IMG/VR virus record: IMGVR_UViG_3300034061_004620
Strand: one strand, 5' to 3'
DNA length: 64,000 bases
Source: a virus
Lineage: Duplodnaviria; Caudoviricetes
Below the pieces are notes generated by a model that was not told the origin of the DNA, did no database searches, and saw only the letters and a program-made list of their open reading frames with translations. Numbering within the stretch: position 1 is the stretch's first letter; every line of letters starts with the position of its first letter. A program made the translations under genes and the position numbers. Of the stretch, positions 47,210 to 57,036 are shown piece by piece.

Positions 47210-47295
47210 ATACCTTTATTATGGGGTTATAGCAGTTGTTTTCTTCAAAATATCAACGTTATATAAAACTACAACCTTATAAAGGAGGAAAAAAG

Positions 47296-47850
47296 ATGAG
47301 ACAACATTTGCCTAACATAGCAAAATTTGTATCAATCGTTTTTGGTATGTGGCTTGCTACATACACCTTGGTAGAGGTCACCAAAAACAAATTTGAATCA
47401 CTCAAGGCCGAAAAGGCCGAGATGGCTGCTGTGCATCCGGTAACTGGAGAAGAAAGATCTCGCCAGCTACGATGCCTTACGCAGAACATTTATTGGGAAG
47501 CCGCCAGCGAACCATTTGAAGGTAAAGTCGCTGTGGCTCAAGTAACAATCAATCGCGCTAATAGTAGCCAGTTTCCCAATGATATCTGTGCAGTCGTATA
47601 TCAGAAAAATGTATTCTACTCACGAGTAGTTTGCCAGTTCTCTTGGTACTGCGATGGTACTCACAGAGTACGTCCTGTTTATCAACCCTTGTACAACGAA
47701 AGTGCAGAAGTTGCTAAAAAAGTATTACTGGAAAATTTTAGACTACCCAGTCTCAAAAATGCAATGTATTATCATGCTGACTATGTTCAACCAGGGTGGG
47801 GTAAAAAACCCATTGCCAAAATTGGGCGCCATATCTTTTATGGTAGTTAA
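47296..47850 (+). CDS. SleB-family cell wall hydrolase (Hydrolase_2)
   Basis: CLTQNIYWEA..EP..GK.AVAQV..NR, CQFSW and YYHADYV.P.W motifs; AGGAGG SD; N-terminal TM segment. Confidence 0.92.
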   Translation: MRQHLPNIAKFVSIVFGMWLATYTLVEVTKNKFESLKAEKAEMAAVHPVTGEERSRQLRCLTQNIYWEAASEPFEGKVAVAQVTINRANSSQFPNDICAVVYQKNVFYSRVVCQFSWYCDGTHRVRPVYQPLYNESAEVAKKVLLENFRLPSLKNAMYYHADYVQPGWGKKPIAKIGRHIFYGS

Positions 47851-49896: not shown

Positions 49897-50099
49897 CCGC
49901 AGGCTGGATCTTGATTATTGCATTGCATACCACCAGTGGTCAATTTGTTGACAAGTTTGAACTTGGGCCTTTTGCTACCAAGAAAGCCTGTATGGCTACT
50001 AAAATTTCTGGACTTAATCAGTTCAAGAAAAATAAAGTGTGTGTCACAGTAGCCCACTGGGAAGGACGTGATATTGATTCTGGTGTAGCACCCGACTAA
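49893..50099 (+). CDS. Small protein with an N-terminal hydrophobic segment
   Basis: GGAGG SD; two Cys. Confidence 0.7.
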   Translation: MTAGWILIIALHTTSGQFVDKFELGPFATKKACMATKISGLNQFKKNKVCVTVAHWEGRDIDSGVAPD

Positions 50100-50109
50100 G
50101 GAGATCAAA

Positions 50110-50322
50110 ATGGAACCCAAAGACTTTAGTAATACTTTTAACCGAGCGCGACAAGAAATACGTTATGCTCAAGGGTTAGGACGCAAGCGTCAGATTATCA
50201 ATCGACAACTTGAGGAACTGCATTCTATACATATGGAAATGATAGAAGGTGCAGTGCAGGCAAAAGAAGCTCAAGGTTTTCCGGAAGCTAATCAACTTAT
50301 TGATCATATTAGGGCACTGTAA
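50110..50322 (+). CDS. Early hypothetical protein
   Basis: AAGGAG SD. Confidence 0.7.
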   Translation: MEPKDFSNTFNRARQEIRYAQGLGRKRQIINRQLEELHSIHMEMIEGAVQAKEAQGFPEANQLIDHIRAL

Positions 50323-50606
50323 TGGATATTGATAAATTGGTAGATAATATTCTCGAAGATCGTATTGCTATTACAGATCTGGATATTCCGCAAATGGAAG
50401 CTGTGATTGATTTCATGCGCGAGCACGTAGCTAACATCGACAATGATGAGTATAGAGAAGCACTAATGTGTCTGGTTGATGCAATAGAAATTTCAGCCGA
50501 AAACAGATTTGTTAACGAAGCAGCAGGTGCCTGGGACGAAACCATTGAAGCCAGTGTTGCCCGCGGCAATAGCTATTTTGAACTTGAAAATTATGTAGTA
50601 CAGTAG
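50322..50606 (+). CDS. Acidic hypothetical protein
   Basis: TAATG-coupled ORF. Confidence 0.7.
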   Translation: MDIDKLVDNILEDRIAITDLDIPQMEAVIDFMREHVANIDNDEYREALMCLVDAIEISAENRFVNEAAGAWDETIEASVARGNSYFELENYVVQ

Positions 50607-50633
50607 TATGTGGTGCTCCTTAGGCAGTATTTT

Positions 50634-50658
50634 AACCCGCTTCGGCGGGTTTCTTTTT
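50634..50658 (+). terminator. Intrinsic terminator with cUUCGg loop
   Basis: AACCCGC-TTCG-GCGGGTT followed by TCTTTTT. Confidence 0.9.
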
Positions 50659-50671
50659 GCTAAATACTCTT

Positions 50672-50971
50672 ATGAAGATCACAGATATTATCCGCAGCGT
50701 ATTAGATGTTATAGATAATGCAGAAGCTCCTGCAGAACCTGCTCTGGCCATTACCGTACAAGTTGATCCTGAACAAGAAATGCAGGACATGCAGCGTTTG
50801 GCTGGAATTTTAGATCTCGAAGATGCAGAATTTGCCAACGAACCAAACACTATTGTAGCACCAATGGGTGCTGCTTTCCCAGCCGGGGATGATGTACATC
50901 ACAGCAAAAACCCTGCAGACATTAGAACTAATGCACCCAGCATGTTTCCCGGATATCAGGCAAGGATGTAA
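50672..50971 (+). CDS. Late acidic protein (MKITDII leader)
   Basis: TAAATA at 50661-50666, then ATG. Confidence 0.7.
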   Translation: MKITDIIRSVLDVIDNAEAPAEPALAITVQVDPEQEMQDMQRLAGILDLEDAEFANEPNTIVAPMGAAFPAGDDVHHSKNPADIRTNAPSMFPGYQARM

Positions 50972-50973
50972 CC

Positions 50974-51393
50974 GTGGCTAATATTACAATCACAGTTCAG
51001 AGTTTACTTAATACAGCAGTATATAATAGCTATACCATTGACAATGGTCAAACCATTGACCAGCTTAAAACAGCCGTCAATTCAGCGCGAGGTTTTAATA
51101 GTAGTTGGTATAATATAGTTCTAAATGAACATGTGGTATCGGGATCAGCTACCTTGGCAAGTTTGGGCATTGTGTCTGGGACCAGGCTCAGAACAGCAAA
51201 TGTCATTGATAGGTTAGCTACAAAAGAATTACGACAAAAAGCCAAATTAGACTTATCGGAACTTGACCGAACAGCAGACGGTAATCCAAGATCAACTTAT
51301 GATATAACAGAGTTGCCCACACAATACAGCGGCAATAACATTGTTGATAATCCACAACCCAACGGATTGATTTTGGGAAGACCTTGGATATAA
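50974..51393 (+). CDS. Protein with an N-terminal ubiquitin-like (beta-grasp) domain
   Basis: Residues about 3-76 align by eye with ubiquitin (TIDQLK/TIENVK, TLASLGI/TLSDYNI). Confidence 0.65.
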   Translation: MANITITVQSLLNTAVYNSYTIDNGQTIDQLKTAVNSARGFNSSWYNIVLNEHVVSGSATLASLGIVSGTRLRTANVIDRLATKELRQKAKLDLSELDRTADGNPRSTYDITELPTQYSGNNIVDNPQPNGLILGRPWI

Positions 51394-51396
51394 TTT

Positions 51397-53046
51397 ATGG
51401 CCTATGTTAAACCCAGCGCCGGCCGAGGCGATCGAAGACAAAATACTACCAACTACGAGCACCCACAAGAAACTAATCTATTAGATCTCCATCGTGCCAT
51501 GGAGTATGACCTTGCAGGCAAACCTATAATTCGTGTAATCTCCAAATTGGCAGGTCCCGAAGTTGCAGGGCAAGTTACTGCATTTGGCGAACCTTTAGCT
51601 ATATCGCCTACTGCTGTTATTCAGTTAGATGCTATCTACGGAACCACAACAGATGTAATACAAACATACACCAGTGGCACAGGATCGTCAGCTGGATCAA
51701 ACGCACAGATATTTAGAGTACAATCTGGTACCACACAAGGTGGCTATGGCGTATTACGATCAAAACGATTCATGCGATATCGCCCGGGACAGGGTGTGGT
51801 CACAAGATTTACCGCAGCCTTTACACAGGGTGTAGCAGGTAGCCTACAGTTTGCCGGCTTGGCCAATCAAGAAAACAGATTGATATTTGGGTTTGATGGA
51901 GATAGATTTGGCATTTGTCGTAGCACTGGTGGCAAAGCCACTATCTTGTTAATGACCATGACTGTGGCTCCCAATGCCACACAAACTGCCACCATTACCT
52001 TGAACGGTGTGGCCTACACAGTGGTATTAAGCAACACCACTGCTGAAGTTGCCATACAGACCATTACCAATCGTGCGGGCGGATACGGCGGATGGTTATT
52101 CCAACAAACAGACGGGGCTATGTTGTGGTTGGCACCAACACTGGGACCAATGACGGGTACTTTCAGTTTTACCAGCACCGGTAATGCACAAGCCACCTTT
52201 GAAGTCAAACAAGCAGGTATAGCACAGACCGACTACTGGACCTATCAAGAAGATTGGAATGTGGACCGATTGGATGGCAGCAACACCATTGCTACCAACC
52301 CCAGCGGCATGTTGCTTGATCCTACCAAATTGAATGTGTATCAAATCAACATGCGATGGTTGGGAGTAGGAGCCATCAGTTACGCAATAGAAGATCAAGC
52401 ATCGGGAACACTGATCTATGTGCATAGAGAACACTATACTAACCAATATACCGTTCCGCATATTGATAACCCCAGCTTTAAAATTACCTATGCCGCAGTC
52501 AACACTACCAACGCCACCAATCTTGCAGTGATTGGTGCCAGCATGTATGGTGCAATAGAAGGCACCATAAATCAAAATGAGTTGACTCGTAGCAAAAACA
52601 CCAGTAAATCAAATTTGGCACAAAACCAAGTGCATCACTGCTTGACTATCAAAAACAGTGTGGTCACCAATGGCCTGGCCGGAGCCAACAATGGCAATTA
52701 TGTTATCAATGCCAAAGAAGCCATCGTCAAACAGTTGAGTTTTAGTATACAAGGACAGGATCCAGCTGATGTGTATCTATTTTTTGACCCCACCAGTTTG
52801 TCAGCGCCACACTTGTACAACAATATCAACTACAACAATGAAGTGTTTAGCACTGTCACAGGCACATTCAATCTTGCCATAGATACTGCTATTTGGTCCG
52901 GCATTGTGGGTATCAATGGCACAATCAATATTGATCTCAGTGCTTATCGTATTACCATACCACCCGGTAGTCAAGTCAGCATTGCTGTAGAAAGTACCGG
53001 GTCAATAAGTCGCATGGACTGTTCGCTAACTTGGTCAGAAGATTAA
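51397..53046 (+). CDS. Putative virion structural beta-rich protein
   Basis: Late operon; Thr/Gly/Ser/Asn-rich; RYRPGQG and NVYQINMRWLGVG lectin-like segments. Confidence 0.6.
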   Translation: MAYVKPSAGRGDRRQNTTNYEHPQETNLLDLHRAMEYDLAGKPIIRVISKLAGPEVAGQVTAFGEPLAISPTAVIQLDAIYGTTTDVIQTYTSGTGSSAGSNAQIFRVQSGTTQGGYGVLRSKRFMRYRPGQGVVTRFTAAFTQGVAGSLQFAGLANQENRLIFGFDGDRFGICRSTGGKATILLMTMTVAPNATQTATITLNGVAYTVVLSNTTAEVAIQTITNRAGGYGGWLFQQTDGAMLWLAPTLGPMTGTFSFTSTGNAQATFEVKQAGIAQTDYWTYQEDWNVDRLDGSNTIATNPSGMLLDPTKLNVYQINMRWLGVGAISYAIEDQASGTLIYVHREHYTNQYTVPHIDNPSFKITYAAVNTTNATNLAVIGASMYGAIEGTINQNELTRSKNTSKSNLAQNQVHHCLTIKNSVVTNGLAGANNGNYVINAKEAIVKQLSFSIQGQDPADVYLFFDPTSLSAPHLYNNINYNNEVFSTVTGTFNLAIDTAIWSGIVGINGTINIDLSAYRITIPPGSQVSIAVESTGSISRMDCSLTWSED

Positions 53047-53056
53047 ACCAAAACAG

Positions 53057-53106
53057 TTGACATACTTCTCTTAGTATACTATACTCAACACACAATTCTA
53101 TAAATA
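53057..53106 (+). promoter_or_regulatory. Tandem sigma70 and late promoters
   Basis: TTGACA-N17-TATACT (53057-53085) and TATAAATA (53099-53106). Confidence 0.8.
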
Positions 53107-53112
53107 CACGCT

Positions 53113-54819
53113 ATGTTATTTGGATCACTAATCATGTTGGTGGCCATTACCATTTCGGCAATTGCTGCTTGGTATTCGGTCGCTGGTCTTACTGCCATAT
53201 TCAGTGCAGCAGTCATCCCTGTTATCATCATGGGAGGCGCACTGGAAGCCGGTAAATTGGTTGCCACGGTTTGGCTACACAACAATTGGCGTAGAGCCGG
53301 TTGGGCATTTAAAACATATCTGATTCCTGCCATTGTGTTTCTCATGCTGTTGACCAGTATGGGTATATTTGGTTTCTTGAGCAAGGCACATTCGGATCAA
53401 AGCCTGGTAACCGGTGATGCCACCAGCCGGGTTGCCATCTATGATGAAAAGATTGCCACCGAACGAGAAAACATAGCACAAGCAAAGAAGGCACTTGAGC
53501 AAATGAATGCACAAGTAGATCAAATGCTTGGTAGAACAGATACAGAGCGTGGAACAGAGAGAGCAGTTGTTATTCGTAAACAACAGGCCAAAGAACGAGC
53601 CGCGTTACAAACAGAAATTGCAAAAAGTCAAAAAAACATACAACAGTTACAGGCTGAACGAGCACCATTTGCTGCTGAAGCCAGAAAAGTAGAGGCCGAA
53701 GTAGGACCAATAAAATATATTGCTGCTCTTATATACGGCGACAATCCTGACCAAAACGTTCTTGAGCGGGCTGTACGTTGGGTTATTATTCTTATTGTTG
53801 TTGTATTTGATCCATTGGCTCTAACACTTATTCTTGCTGCCAACAAACAGTTCGAATGGGCAAGAGCCGGTAAGGGTGGTTGGGTACATGATGAGGAAGA
53901 AAAAACGGTTTCAGCAGTTACCGCGACAGAAGAACCAAAAGAAGAGTCGCCACCTCAACCTGATTATCCGGCCGATGATGGACCTCTCACCGAGGATCAA
54001 TTGAAACAAATTCAAACTACTGTAGATTGTGGCAACTGTCCTAAGTGTGAAACAAAACTAACATACGCACCAGGTATTGGTCCATTCTGTCCCAACAAAC
54101 AATGTGATGTTGTAGACGGGATCAACACAGTTGGTAGTACTGAGGAATTTTTTGAACAAGCACATTTTGCAGCACAAACAGCAGACATGTTAGATGAACA
54201 GCAACGTGCCGAGTATGCCAACCAAGAAATAAGCAAGATTGAACCCGAACATGATCTTGATATACCGGTACTGGAAAATGAAGAAATGTGGGCCAGTAGG
54301 GTAATAGACGAACAGGCAAAAGGTCTGCTCGAGCCGCCGCCTTCACCGCCGAATGTACCAATGGCCAAAATAGAGCCCGAGCCTGCCACACCTGCGGTTG
54401 ATGAATTTAACACTCCGATACGTAGGGGAAATGACTACGCAGTAAGATACAAGGGCAAAGTTTATAACCTGGATGCATTCAATAAACTGTATCCCAGCAT
54501 GGCCATCAGCGCCGATAACGACAGATTAGAAGAAGCCAGCCAGTGTGGATTTGGAGATAGATTTCCTGAATCTCCCATGAAAGGCGATATGTTTATAAGA
54601 ACAGACTATTTACCAGATCGCTTATTTAAATGGAATGGCACCAAGTGGATAGAAGTTGACAAAAACTCTACTGACAGCTATACTTACAATCAAGCCTATA
54701 TACAGCATCTTATTAGCAAGCTCGAAGCAGGCGAATATGAAATTGAGGATTTGAGTGATGCTGAGCAGGCACAGGTAGAACAACAAATTGAAGAAATTTT
54801 AAAAACCAAACGTGTATAG
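53113..54819 (+). CDS. Multi-TM membrane protein with coiled coil, Cys ribbon and acidic tail
   Basis: About three N-terminal TMs, a coiled coil, a further TM and CGNCPKC...CPNKQC. Confidence 0.8.
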   Translation: MLFGSLIMLVAITISAIAAWYSVAGLTAIFSAAVIPVIIMGGALEAGKLVATVWLHNNWRRAGWAFKTYLIPAIVFLMLLTSMGIFGFLSKAHSDQSLVTGDATSRVAIYDEKIATERENIAQAKKALEQMNAQVDQMLGRTDTERGTERAVVIRKQQAKERAALQTEIAKSQKNIQQLQAERAPFAAEARKVEAEVGPIKYIAALIYGDNPDQNVLERAVRWVIILIVVVFDPLALTLILAANKQFEWARAGKGGWVHDEEEKTVSAVTATEEPKEESPPQPDYPADDGPLTEDQLKQIQTTVDCGNCPKCETKLTYAPGIGPFCPNKQCDVVDGINTVGSTEEFFEQAHFAAQTADMLDEQQRAEYANQEISKIEPEHDLDIPVLENEEMWASRVIDEQAKGLLEPPPSPPNVPMAKIEPEPATPAVDEFNTPIRRGNDYAVRYKGKVYNLDAFNKLYPSMAISADNDRLEEASQCGFGDRFPESPMKGDMFIRTDYLPDRLFKWNGTKWIEVDKNSTDSYTYNQAYIQHLISKLEAGEYEIEDLSDAEQAQVEQQIEEILKTKRV

Positions 54820-55171: not shown

Positions 55172-55411
55172 ATGATGTTTGATAAATCTAATAAAGTTAC
55201 CGGTAACCGAGTTGTAGTTGTAAACGACAACGTTGAAAAAGCTCTACGCAAATTCAAAAAGAAAGTGGCCGAAAGCGGACTGCTGCAAGAATTGCGCGAG
55301 CGCGAACACTACGAAAAACCCACCACTGCACGTAAAAAGGCCAAAGGTGCAGCGCGACGCCGCTGGAAAAAACGTTTGGCTGACGAGCAGCTACCCAAAA
55401 AACTATTCTAA
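55172..55411 (+). CDS. rpsU: 30S ribosomal protein bS21
   Basis: [33 protein letters not shown] signature. Confidence 0.93.
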
Positions 55412-55656
55412 TGTACGTGGAGTTTCGCTTGCCAATGGGTGCAGGCGGAGCAGCCGCGGGCACAGCTCTTGCTCAAATCAATATAGACATAGATAATTGG
55501 GTAAGGAACAACAATATAAAACACTGGAAATGTAAACTTCACAAGTACACATATAGATTGTGTTTGAGCGGTGCTGAAGATTACACACATTTTGCGTTGA
55601 CCTGGGATCCTGAATATGCAGCATCACGAAATTTTGAATTTAAAAATCCAAAATAG
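55411..55656 (+). CDS. Small hypothetical protein (ends DYTHFALTW)
   Basis: TAATG-coupled ORF. Confidence 0.65.
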   Translation: MYVEFRLPMGAGGAAAGTALAQINIDIDNWVRNNNIKHWKCKLHKYTYRLCLSGAEDYTHFALTWDPEYAASRNFEFKNPK

Positions 55657-55687
55657 TTGCAATCAATCACAAAATCGTGTATAAATA
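55657..55687 (+). promoter_or_regulatory. Overlapping sigma70 and late promoter of hsp20
   Basis: TTGCAA-N17-TATAAA, where the -10 element is TATAAATA. Confidence 0.7.
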
Positions 55688-55745
55688 TACATGTAGCGCC
55701 GACAGGGCTACACAGTCATACTTGCTTATTTGAAAGGAGAAAATT

Positions 55746-56198
55746 ATGACACAATTCAGTATCAACACCCTTGACCTTCCACAACTATCTGCACAAATCC
55801 ATCGTCATGCGATTGGTTTTGATCGCTTGTTTGACGAGTTAGGCCGTACCTGGGCTAACAGCGCCAAAGCAGAAAACTATCCTCCATACAACATCATTAA
55901 AGTTGATGAAAACAACTGGGCTATCCAAGTTGCAGTTGCCGGCTTTGGAGAGGATGAGTTAGACATTGAACGCAAGGACAATGTTTTATACATCAAGGGC
56001 GAGCGTAAAGCCAAAGACGAACAAGAGTATATCCACCGTGGTATCAGTGCTCGTACTTTCAATCGCTCATTTACTCTTAATGAAAATGTTGAAGTAAAAG
56101 GTGCCACAGTAATTAACGGCATCTTGGCAATCAGTCTTGAGCATATTGTTCCTGAAGAACAAAAGCCCAAAAAGATTGCAATCACTTTTGCTAAGTAA
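55746..56198 (+). CDS. Small heat shock protein Hsp20 (IbpA-like)
   Basis: IGFDRLF, NYPPYNI, AVAGF, YIHRGI..R.F.R.F.L and GIL motifs. Confidence 0.95.
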   Translation: MTQFSINTLDLPQLSAQIHRHAIGFDRLFDELGRTWANSAKAENYPPYNIIKVDENNWAIQVAVAGFGEDELDIERKDNVLYIKGERKAKDEQEYIHRGISARTFNRSFTLNENVEVKGATVINGILAISLEHIVPEEQKPKKIAITFAK

Positions 56199-56210
56199 TA
56201 TAGTGTAATA

Positions 56211-56235
56211 CAGTAGGAGCATCCTGCTCCTACTG
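56211..56235. other. Perfect 10-bp hairpin between hsp20 and clpS
   Basis: CAGTAGGAGC-ATCCT-GCTCCTACTG with no U-tract. Confidence 0.75.
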
Positions 56236-56251
56236 AAATTTGAATACTACA

Positions 56252-56563
56252 ATGAGTAAAGCCGAAACTATTAACAAACCTAAAATTGCAGTAAAACAAA
56301 CTATCCAACCTCCAAGTTTGTTTAACGTTATCTATATGAACGATAATGTAACAACCATGGAATTTGTTATAGAAAGCTTGAAAAGTATTTTTCATCATGA
56401 TGAAAATACTGCATATGAACTAACCAAAAAAATACACGAGGATGGTAGCAGTATAGTAAAAACTCTGCCATACGAAATTGCTGAGCAAAAAGGTGTCGAA
56501 GCAACCTTGTTGGCTCGTACAAATGGATTTCCTCTTTCAATTAAACTCGAACCAGCCAATTAA
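56252..56563 (+). CDS. clpS: ATP-dependent Clp protease adaptor ClpS
   Basis: VIYMNDNVTTMEFV, IHEDG...V...YEIAEQK and FPL motifs. Confidence 0.93.
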   Translation: MSKAETINKPKIAVKQTIQPPSLFNVIYMNDNVTTMEFVIESLKSIFHHDENTAYELTKKIHEDGSSIVKTLPYEIAEQKGVEATLLARTNGFPLSIKLEPAN

Positions 56564-57036
56564 TGATATTCAATAAAATTCGTGAGCTTAAGGACAAGGG
56601 ACTTAAGATTGGGATTACTTTTTCGACTTTTGATTTATTTCACGCCGGACATGTGGCAATGTTGGCTGAGGCTAAGAATCACTGCGATTATCTTATCGCC
56701 GGGCTCCAGACAGACCCAACAATTGACCGTCCGGATACAAAAAATAGACCAGTCCAGAGTATTGTGGAAAGACAAATTCAACTGGCAGCATGCCGTTATG
56801 TTGATGAAGTTGTTGTTTACCAGACCGAACAAGATCTGATTGACATTATCTTGACTTTACCAATTGATGTGCGTATACTTGGTGTTGAATACGAAGGTAA
56901 ACCATTTACTGGTGAAGAAGAAGGTTACAATAGAGGTATTGAGTTAGTATTCAACAAACGCGATCATTCTTTTAGTTCAAGCAGTTTACGACGTAGAGTA
57001 GCAGCAGCCGAAGCTGATCGAGCCCTAAGGAGTTAG
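56563..57036 (+). CDS. Cytidylyltransferase (TagD-like)
   Basis: FSTFDLFHAGH, GLQTDPTIDR and RDHSFSSSSLR motifs. Confidence 0.9.
   Translation: MIFNKIRELKDKGLKIGITFSTFDLFHAGHVAMLAEAKNHCDYLIAGLQTDPTIDRPDTKNRPVQSIVERQIQLAACRYVDEVVVYQTEQDLIDIILTLPIDVRILGVEYEGKPFTGEEEGYNRGIELVFNKRDHSFSSSSLRRRVAAAEADRALRS

Follow-up and report, generated by a model that had tools for sequence, protein, structure and literature searches.

A ubiquitin-family domain joined to a conserved C-terminal module in uncultured freshwater jumbo phages, and its possible role in a virion adhesin cassette

Phage β-grasp domains of the ubiquitin type are known mainly from the lambda-like tail protein I, whose ubiquitin-like domain (Ubl) is ThiS/MoaD-like. 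In this family (TAPI; gpI of phages lambda and T1; Lambda_tail_I) an N-terminal Ubl is followed by a small C-terminal domain and the gene precedes a host-specificity structural gene; the Ubl ends in a conserved Gly and is followed by a Gly-rich linker, and its neighbours are the JAB/NlpC-P60 protein gpK and gpJ (PMC1779556). The C-terminal domain of lambda gpI, residues 135–223, is a trimeric plug in the particle, where it is bound to gpJ by β-sheet augmentation (PMC10721106). Conjugatable modifiers expose, natively or after processing, a C-terminal Gly or Gly-Gly where the β-grasp ends, and their cognate E1 (ThiF-like) and JAB/DUB enzymes are encoded in the same genome. The Ubls of the eukaryotic adaptors Dsk2, Rad23 and BAG1 are integral, N-terminal and unprocessed, with other modules after them. 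Ubiquitin-like folds also occur in a phage–bacterium setting in Bil and in type II CBASS (Cap2/Cap3), which are host operons with E1, E2 and JAB enzymes and with a Ubl or target that has a free C-terminal Gly. Bil systems conjugate a Ubl onto phage tail-fibre proteins. Phage fibre anchors and decoration proteins, T4 Hoc among them, join a conserved part to exchangeable receptor-binding or Ig/lectin parts.

The protein described here, of 139 residues, is encoded in a window of 64,000 nucleotides (the whole stretch of DNA that was analysed) and comprises an N-terminal Ubl and a C-terminal module ending in Gly-Arg-Pro-Trp (GRPW). As in Dsk2, Rad23 and BAG1, its Ubl is N-terminal and unprocessed, and another module comes after it. 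Unlike ubiquitin, the domain has neither Gly-Gly nor a flexible C-terminal tail and occurs in a tailed bacteriophage; the exposed terminal Gly of the conjugatable modifiers is lacking. Whereas the TAPI Ubl is ThiS/MoaD-like, the present one is of the ubiquitin type, linker-free and without a peptidase neighbour, and the C-terminal modules of the two proteins are unrelated. A Pfam scan at E ≤ 1 gave PF00240 alone, with no match to Lambda_tail_I. The protein is not a member of TAPI, which by analogy would be its best functional counterpart and nearest precedent. With Bil and type II CBASS it has only the ubiquitin-like fold in a phage–bacterium setting in common: its gene lies in a phage operon with a structural-family protein and none of the above enzymes, and the C-terminus of its Ubl is not free. 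The logic of the fibre anchors, a conserved part with exchangeable parts, recurs in the GRPW module and also in the product of the downstream gene (q549), in which a conserved arm bears variable distal domains; described fibre anchors gave no match to the module in Pfam, PHROG or the PDB, and its attachment to the particle is a reading from comparison. No description of this phage ubiquitin-family protein family was found in the searchable full-text literature.

The gene and its ubiquitin-family domain

The gene and its two parts are placed as follows.

50974–51393, + strand: gene of the 139-residue protein, with a GTG start
50974–51195, + strand: Ubl β-grasp domain, residues 1–74 (about 1–75), with fold and family-level homology to PF00240/ubiquitin and without a C-terminal Gly-Gly
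51196–51393, + strand: GRPW module, a candidate adaptor, residues 75–139 plus the stop codon; an independent conserved unit of 65 residues

The GTG start is sound because homologues from other samples share the same N-terminus, M-A-(N/T)-I-T-I-T-V-Q; an AAGGA sequence lies 8 nt 5′ of the GTG. The strings that a first-pass annotation had quoted from this protein are all present in the translation of 50974–51393, including the C-terminal LPTQYSGNNIVDNPQPNGLILGRPWI. All large open reading frames of the window are on the + strand, and its gene content includes ribonucleotide reductase, helicases, bS21, Hsp20 and ClpS. Contigs of 346–352 kb carry identical or near-identical copies of the protein, and a contig of 369 kb carries a relative with 70% identity, UFOVP257. 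A near-identical stretch is present in lake-water and freshwater metagenome runs of 18 study codes. The source is an uncultured freshwater (lake-water) jumbo phage, whose genome reaches at least about 170 kb past the upstream edge of the window and 44 kb past the downstream one. A search of a set of 5.8 billion proteins yielded 577 homologues at E ≤ 0.01, the 120th of which is still ~70% identical; the representative search returned 289 clusters at 50% identity, and IMG/VR contains 448 matching stretches. The protein had no tblastn match among 50,697 phage records, so that no cultured phage with the gene was found, and no PHROG match. The sole megablast match of positions 50000–54000, 32 bp to Pectobacterium phages, was put down to chance. 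Judged from the operon structure, late expression of the gene is plausible.

Taken alone, the 139-residue protein matches PF00240 weakly (E 0.081, 13.1 bits, residues 18–71; the Pfam gathering cut-off is 25.4 bits), and its match to PDB sequences is non-significant. The homology to ubiquitin was accepted because the family-level matches settle it. PF00240 is matched at E ≤ 0.01 by 21 of 31 family members, with a best value of 8.1e-12, and Rad60-SLD by 11 of the 31. Orthologues in two related phage contigs score 33.7 and 28.7 bits against PF00240, over the 25.4-bit cut-off, and the relative P0137 scores 34 bits; none of 14 control prokaryote genomes passed that cut-off. A family profile of residues 1–76 retrieves monomeric ubiquitin chains in the PDB with an E value of 1.7e-8, and profile positions 14–73 align gap-free with ubiquitin 9–68. 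The first hairpin of the phage Ubl is 5 residues longer than that of ubiquitin, and the identity between the two is only ~16%.

The AlphaFold2 model of the protein, built with 48 sequences, has a mean pLDDT of 92.9 and a pTM of 0.82. Its N-terminal part follows the order β-β-α-β-β, with strands at residues 3–9, 17–23, 46–50 and 71–76 and a helix at 28–39. The top-ranked PDB structures in Foldseek are without exception ubiquitin, SUMO or archaeal ubiquitin (TM scores of ~0.9 by target); superposition on ubiquitin gives a TM score of 0.90 by target and an RMSD of 1.2–1.7 Å over 74–77 residues. The VIA search, which is independent of Foldseek, aligned the domain with ubiquitin with a Z score of 13.8 and an RMSD of 1.3 Å over 75 residues. 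Across the ubiquitin family (ubiquitin, NEDD8, SUMO) the same β-grasp fold is seen at RMSD values of 1.1–1.3 Å and Z scores of 13–14, together with homology at the family level. The ubiquitin-fold domain that the first-pass annotation had claimed is thus borne out by the predicted β-grasp, by both superpositions and by the family profile, and the combined AlphaFold and Foldseek check of the fold points to ubiquitin and SUMO as its closest matches. The domain is a member of the ubiquitin family proper, outside the ThiS/MoaD branch. Its N-terminal strand carries a motif, V8, Q9, S10 and L12, that is nearly invariant in 31 members.

The Ubl ends in R-L-R-T-A-N and is followed directly by the module, with no Gly-rich linker, and the family alignment has no conserved Gly at this end. 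The pLDDT does not dip at the junction (blocks 96–97), and in the model the two parts look rigidly joined. The same annotation had reported that Gly-Gly is absent and that a tail of roughly 60 residues follows; the former is confirmed by this ending, and the latter is a tail of ~65 residues that terminates in GRPW. A search of five related phage contigs, of which two have a completeness rating of 100%, found neither Prok-JAB (PF14464) nor ThiF/E1 (PF00899) domains, and the window neighbours of the gene include no E1 or JAB gene and no adjacent peptidase. With no free or freeable C-terminal Gly, no flexible linker, no E1 or JAB in the five contigs and no adjacent peptidase, the Ubl cannot be a modifier; it would be an integral, non-cleaved and non-conjugated domain.

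The GRPW module and the architectures of its family

The representative search with the 139-residue protein returned matches of two types, full-length look-alikes and module-only proteins; the latter have 63–693 residues, and their own residues 2–67 match query residues 74–139. In the AlphaFold2 model the module is composed of a helix (84–101), an L-P-x-x-Y motif, a hairpin (116–125) and the terminal G-R-P-W, with pLDDT values of 82–97. An alignment of 25 diverse module sequences (A2) contains 12 invariant columns, namely Q, K, R, P, Y, N, G-L and G-R-P-W; in the protein of the window Q88, R99, P115 and Y118 are among these residues. Module and Ubl are both under purifying selection. By sequence measures the module is the better conserved of the two, with a mean top-residue frequency of 0.60 versus 0.52, a median dN of 0.32 versus 0.49, and a dN/dS of ~0.19 versus ~0.30 where dS, which is close to saturation, was usable. 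The module has no match in Pfam, PHROGs, PDB sequences or Atlas features, the PDB matches at E 0.9–3 being noise. It is single-copy, with exactly one match in each of five phage contigs of 180–383 kb (two rated 100% complete), and no second copy occurs within the 64-kb window. One relative, P0123 (343 residues), has an additional domain of ~190 residues within the module, which parts the V-D-N-P-N segment from the final L-x-E-G-R-P-W; the two halves of the module thus need not be contiguous.

Clustered at 50% identity, the family divides into 58 clusters with the module and a C-terminal extension, 39 with Ubl, module and C-terminal extension, 35 with Ubl and module only, which is the form in the window, 8 with the module alone and 5 with another N-terminal domain; some of the short entries in these counts may be gene fragments. 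The Ubl is missing from about half of the clusters. The C-terminal extensions are of the lectin or adhesin type: Laminin_G_3 (LamG), PA14/GLEYA, Calx-beta and ILEI. The public names "Interleukin-like EMT inducer" and "GLEYA adhesin domain containing protein" of phage entries are due to these swapped extension domains. Mapped on a tree of the module, which was computed from 66 columns and is poorly resolved, the presence of the Ubl requires 8 changes compared with ~38 when the labels are shuffled. Such clustering would be expected had the Ubl been added in a particular lineage to an adaptor that already existed, and the Ubl looks like an addition of this kind; the tree may contain a single origin of the Ubl.

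The module is read as an attachment element because it is constant, constrained and single-copy and is joined to freely exchanged sugar-binding domains. The same data bear on a second, rather improbable account of the Ubl, according to which it is a mere folding or solubility aid in cis, or an inert spacer for the module, as in ubiquitin–ribosomal protein fusions, and has no interaction surface of its own. That about half of the family has the module without the Ubl, and that the Ubl is the less conserved part, would agree with such an account, as would a weak and non-significant likeness (E 1.2) to 9bh5_Ae, a chain of the Ubl–ribosomal protein fusion type. However, an inert spacer does not sit well with the purifying selection on the Ubl (dN/dS ~0.3, with dS near saturation) or with its nearly invariant first-strand motif, and the domain is kept in variants that already bear large, well-folded lectin domains.

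The gene unit and its lectin-fold protein

The gene is the second of a three-gene unit, which has the following surroundings.

50634–50660, + strand: terminator-like hairpin (GC stem, TTCG loop, T-run) closing the preceding unit; stem 50634–50651 plus T tail
50657–50971, + strand: up104, small acidic protein of 99–104 residues; likely true start ATG at 50672; synteny conserved
50661–50674, + strand: TAAATA box 5 nt ahead of the ATG, at the start of the three-gene unit; possible phage promoter (putative function)
51397–53046, + strand: q549, protein of 549 residues assigned to PHROG 1645, with an N-terminal arm, a ConA-like jelly-roll and a C-terminal β-sandwich
53113–54819, + strand: q568, syntenic protein of 568 residues; own TAAATA box at 53101

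The gene of the 139-residue protein begins 2 nt past the stop codon of up104, which has no Pfam or PHROG match, and the q549 gene begins 3 nt past the stop codon of the former. The order up104, module gene, large protein and q568 homologue recurs across 84 related loci from IMG/VR and assemblies. An up104 homologue lies 5′ of the module gene in most of them, and in most loci with room downstream a q549-family gene, or at least a gene for the arm, begins 3–14 nt 3′ of the module gene, often with an overlapping TAATG. A minority of loci, L024, L037 and L075 among them, have no recognisable q549-family gene after the module gene, and the q568 homologue comes next. In the window the Ubl gene and the q549 gene share a frame, through TAA, TTT and ATG (51391–51399). 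A fusion by stop-codon read-through was considered and rejected, as spacing and frame vary among relatives (3, 5, 6, 7, 10 or 14 nt); these variable spacings, including the overlapping TAATG, point to translational coupling instead.

TAAATA followed by ATG 3–9 nt on occurs 13 times in the window compared with 12.5 expected, which is the chance level. Twelve of the 13 copies are on the coding strand and several lie exactly at gene starts (17759, 49737, 50661, 53101, 55165 and others). From this strand bias and position, TAAATA is a possible phage promoter that would give very short or absent leaders. The q568 protein has weak matches, below cut-off, to the membrane-protein families DUF4407 and tetraspanin at its N-terminus, a long, charged middle with a Cys-rich stretch (weak YacG match), and a C-terminal domain that matches PHROG 11591, 'virion structural protein'. 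The unit sits away from the main structural gene blocks, amid small genes and those for bS21, Hsp20 and ClpS.

Genes for bS21, Hsp20, ClpS and a cytidylyltransferase-like protein stand in a row at 55172–57036, an arrangement that the UFOVP257-like contig L002 repeats after its own cassette. Positions 47236–47850, 3 kb upstream, encode a cell-wall hydrolase of the SleB type (Hydrolase_2, E 6.5e-25), which in L002 is also upstream, adjoining a PAAR-motif protein.

The q549 protein matches PHROG 1645, annotated in the database as 'virion structural protein', with an E value of 1.4e-19, and its counterpart of 771 residues in L002 matches the same PHROG with an E value of 4.5e-24. A homologue in Synechococcus phage S-T4 that is 37% identical to q549 bears the annotation virion structural protein, and its gene lies between terS and terL, beside neck, sheath and tube genes. 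Profiles of the module and of the Ubl had no match in the S-T4 locus; the small protein that precedes the q549 homologue there was examined as a relative of the 139-residue protein and rejected (BLASTP E 0.22, hhalign probability 0.1%).

The model of q549 has an overall pLDDT of 72. Its jelly-roll, residues ~70–390, is similar in fold to GH16 glucanases, to legume and ERGIC-53 lectins and to the carbohydrate-binding modules of phage baseplates, with Z scores from 17.3 down to 12. No GH16-type catalytic motif was found in it by eye, and the domain was for this reason taken as lectin-like and not as a glucanase. Residues ~180–270 (51930–52210) form an insertion of ~100 residues in the jelly-roll that is absent from relatives of 430–450 residues; nowhere is the confidence of the model lower. 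In two metatranscriptome runs, one of them labelled marine, short contigs match parts of the q549 gene (52237–52852) at 95–99% or better, and are too few for claiming transcription.

The q549-family proteins encoded 3′ of the module gene range from 430 to 771 residues and have in common the arm, of ~60 residues, and the jelly-roll, with differing distal parts. In q549 the arm spans approximately residues 1–62 (51397–51600) and is nearly invariant at T18, Y20, H22, N27, L28, M35, Y37, G41, P43 and R46, yet its pLDDT in the monomer model is below 50, which is what a segment that orders upon binding a partner would be expected to show. At two loci (L054 and L057) otherwise unrelated proteins carry just the first 40 residues of the arm, which makes the arm a separable adaptor in itself. 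In three others (L002, L022 and L026) the arm is split by an inserted domain of 130–215 residues.

The proximity of the two genes also raises the prospect, which is unlikely although not slight, that the 139-residue protein is an assembly factor comparable to lambda gpI or a fibre-assembly chaperone, helping q549 to fold, oligomerise or attach. It would then be absent from the particle or partly retained there, with the Ubl disordered or removed. The parts come in the same order as in TAPI, where a Ubl at the N-terminus and a small domain at the C-terminus are encoded ahead of a structural protein of the specificity type (PMC1779556), and only residues 135–223 of gpI are visible in the lambda virion, bound to gpJ (PMC10721106). 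Tight translational coupling to the q549 gene and a conserved acidic small protein upstream, up104, of a kind common for assembly helpers, would suit this role as well. Nonetheless, relatives fuse lectin domains to the module, as would befit a displayed protein and not a discarded chaperone. Neither a JAB nor an NlpC/P60 peptidase adjoins the gene or occurs in the relatives, the Gly-rich linker and the conserved Gly in which the TAPI Ubl ends are lacking, and Lambda_tail_I is not matched in sequence.

Proposed role and significance

The reading proposed here, in which the evidence leaves confidence evenly balanced, is that the 139-residue protein is a non-conjugatable, integral Ubl capping a virion-docking adaptor in a modular adhesin cassette, its virion location and its partner being deduced from comparative anatomy. 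The GRPW module would be the constant core, anchoring the protein on a phage partner that is itself conserved. The likeliest partner would be q549, the product of the translationally coupled downstream gene, bound through its conserved arm, and the assembly of the two would sit on the virion. Related phages may use the single-copy module gene as a chassis, with sugar-binding domains (LamG, PA14/GLEYA, Calx-beta, ILEI) placed C-terminal of the module; in one large sub-lineage the Ubl would cap its N-terminal side, and the phage of the window would carry the Ubl cap and the adaptor only. The Ubl would act by non-covalent contacts, either as a structural cap or as an interaction surface of the appendage. 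The q549 and module genes, with up104 and perhaps q568, would then form a cassette for a virion surface appendage in which module and arm are the docking pieces.

The cassette is read as a virion appendage because the neighbouring q549 follows the same logic of a constant part with variable domains, carries a structural-family annotation and is translationally coupled. The location of the unit apart from the main structural gene blocks counts against this. The loci that have no recognisable q549-family gene imply that the partner may instead be up104, q568 or a virion component encoded elsewhere. An interaction module docked on the virion was one of two roles that the first-pass annotation had put forward for the Ubl. 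This fits the comparative evidence as far as docking is concerned, but the docking part would be the C-terminal module and not the Ubl.

The other role was that of a decoy for host E1, E2 or DUB enzymes, and it is not favoured. As an anti-defence device the Ubl would block these enzymes of Bil or type II CBASS, or shield a targeted fibre. A ubiquitin-family fold that lacks Gly-Gly is compatible with such a device, and its presence in a putative fibre-associated protein is suggestive given the action of Bil on tail fibres. Against this, the Ubl is optional in the family whereas the module is constant, it is apparently rigidly fused to the module, and it is under purifying selection. The family is also highly conserved (577 homologues, the 120th ~70% identical), with no arms-race diversification seen, many relatives are fused to lectins, and the gene lies in a unit with a structural-family protein and not among early or anti-defence genes. 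A decoy is for these reasons very unlikely.

A more far-reaching version of the appendage model, which is a long shot, would give the Ubl a functional surface on the virion appendage. The Ubl would there either mimic or pre-empt the host conjugation of Ubls to tail fibres, as in Bil-type systems, or dock a new class of exchangeable adhesins on the GRPW adaptor. If true, this would be the first case of a ubiquitin-family domain that serves a bacteriophage particle structurally or in counter-defence, and a widespread reservoir of ubiquitin-type sequences in prokaryotic viruses would be added.

The domain of this widespread and abundant phage gene family passes the profile of the ubiquitin family itself. 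The GRPW module and the q549 arm are two short adaptor elements, new in that they were previously undescribed. The database names "Interleukin-like EMT inducer" and "GLEYA adhesin", given from the swapped domain alone, are hereby corrected. The swapping of sugar-binding domains around the module and the arm offers a way into the construction and variation of surface adhesins in uncultured jumbo phages.
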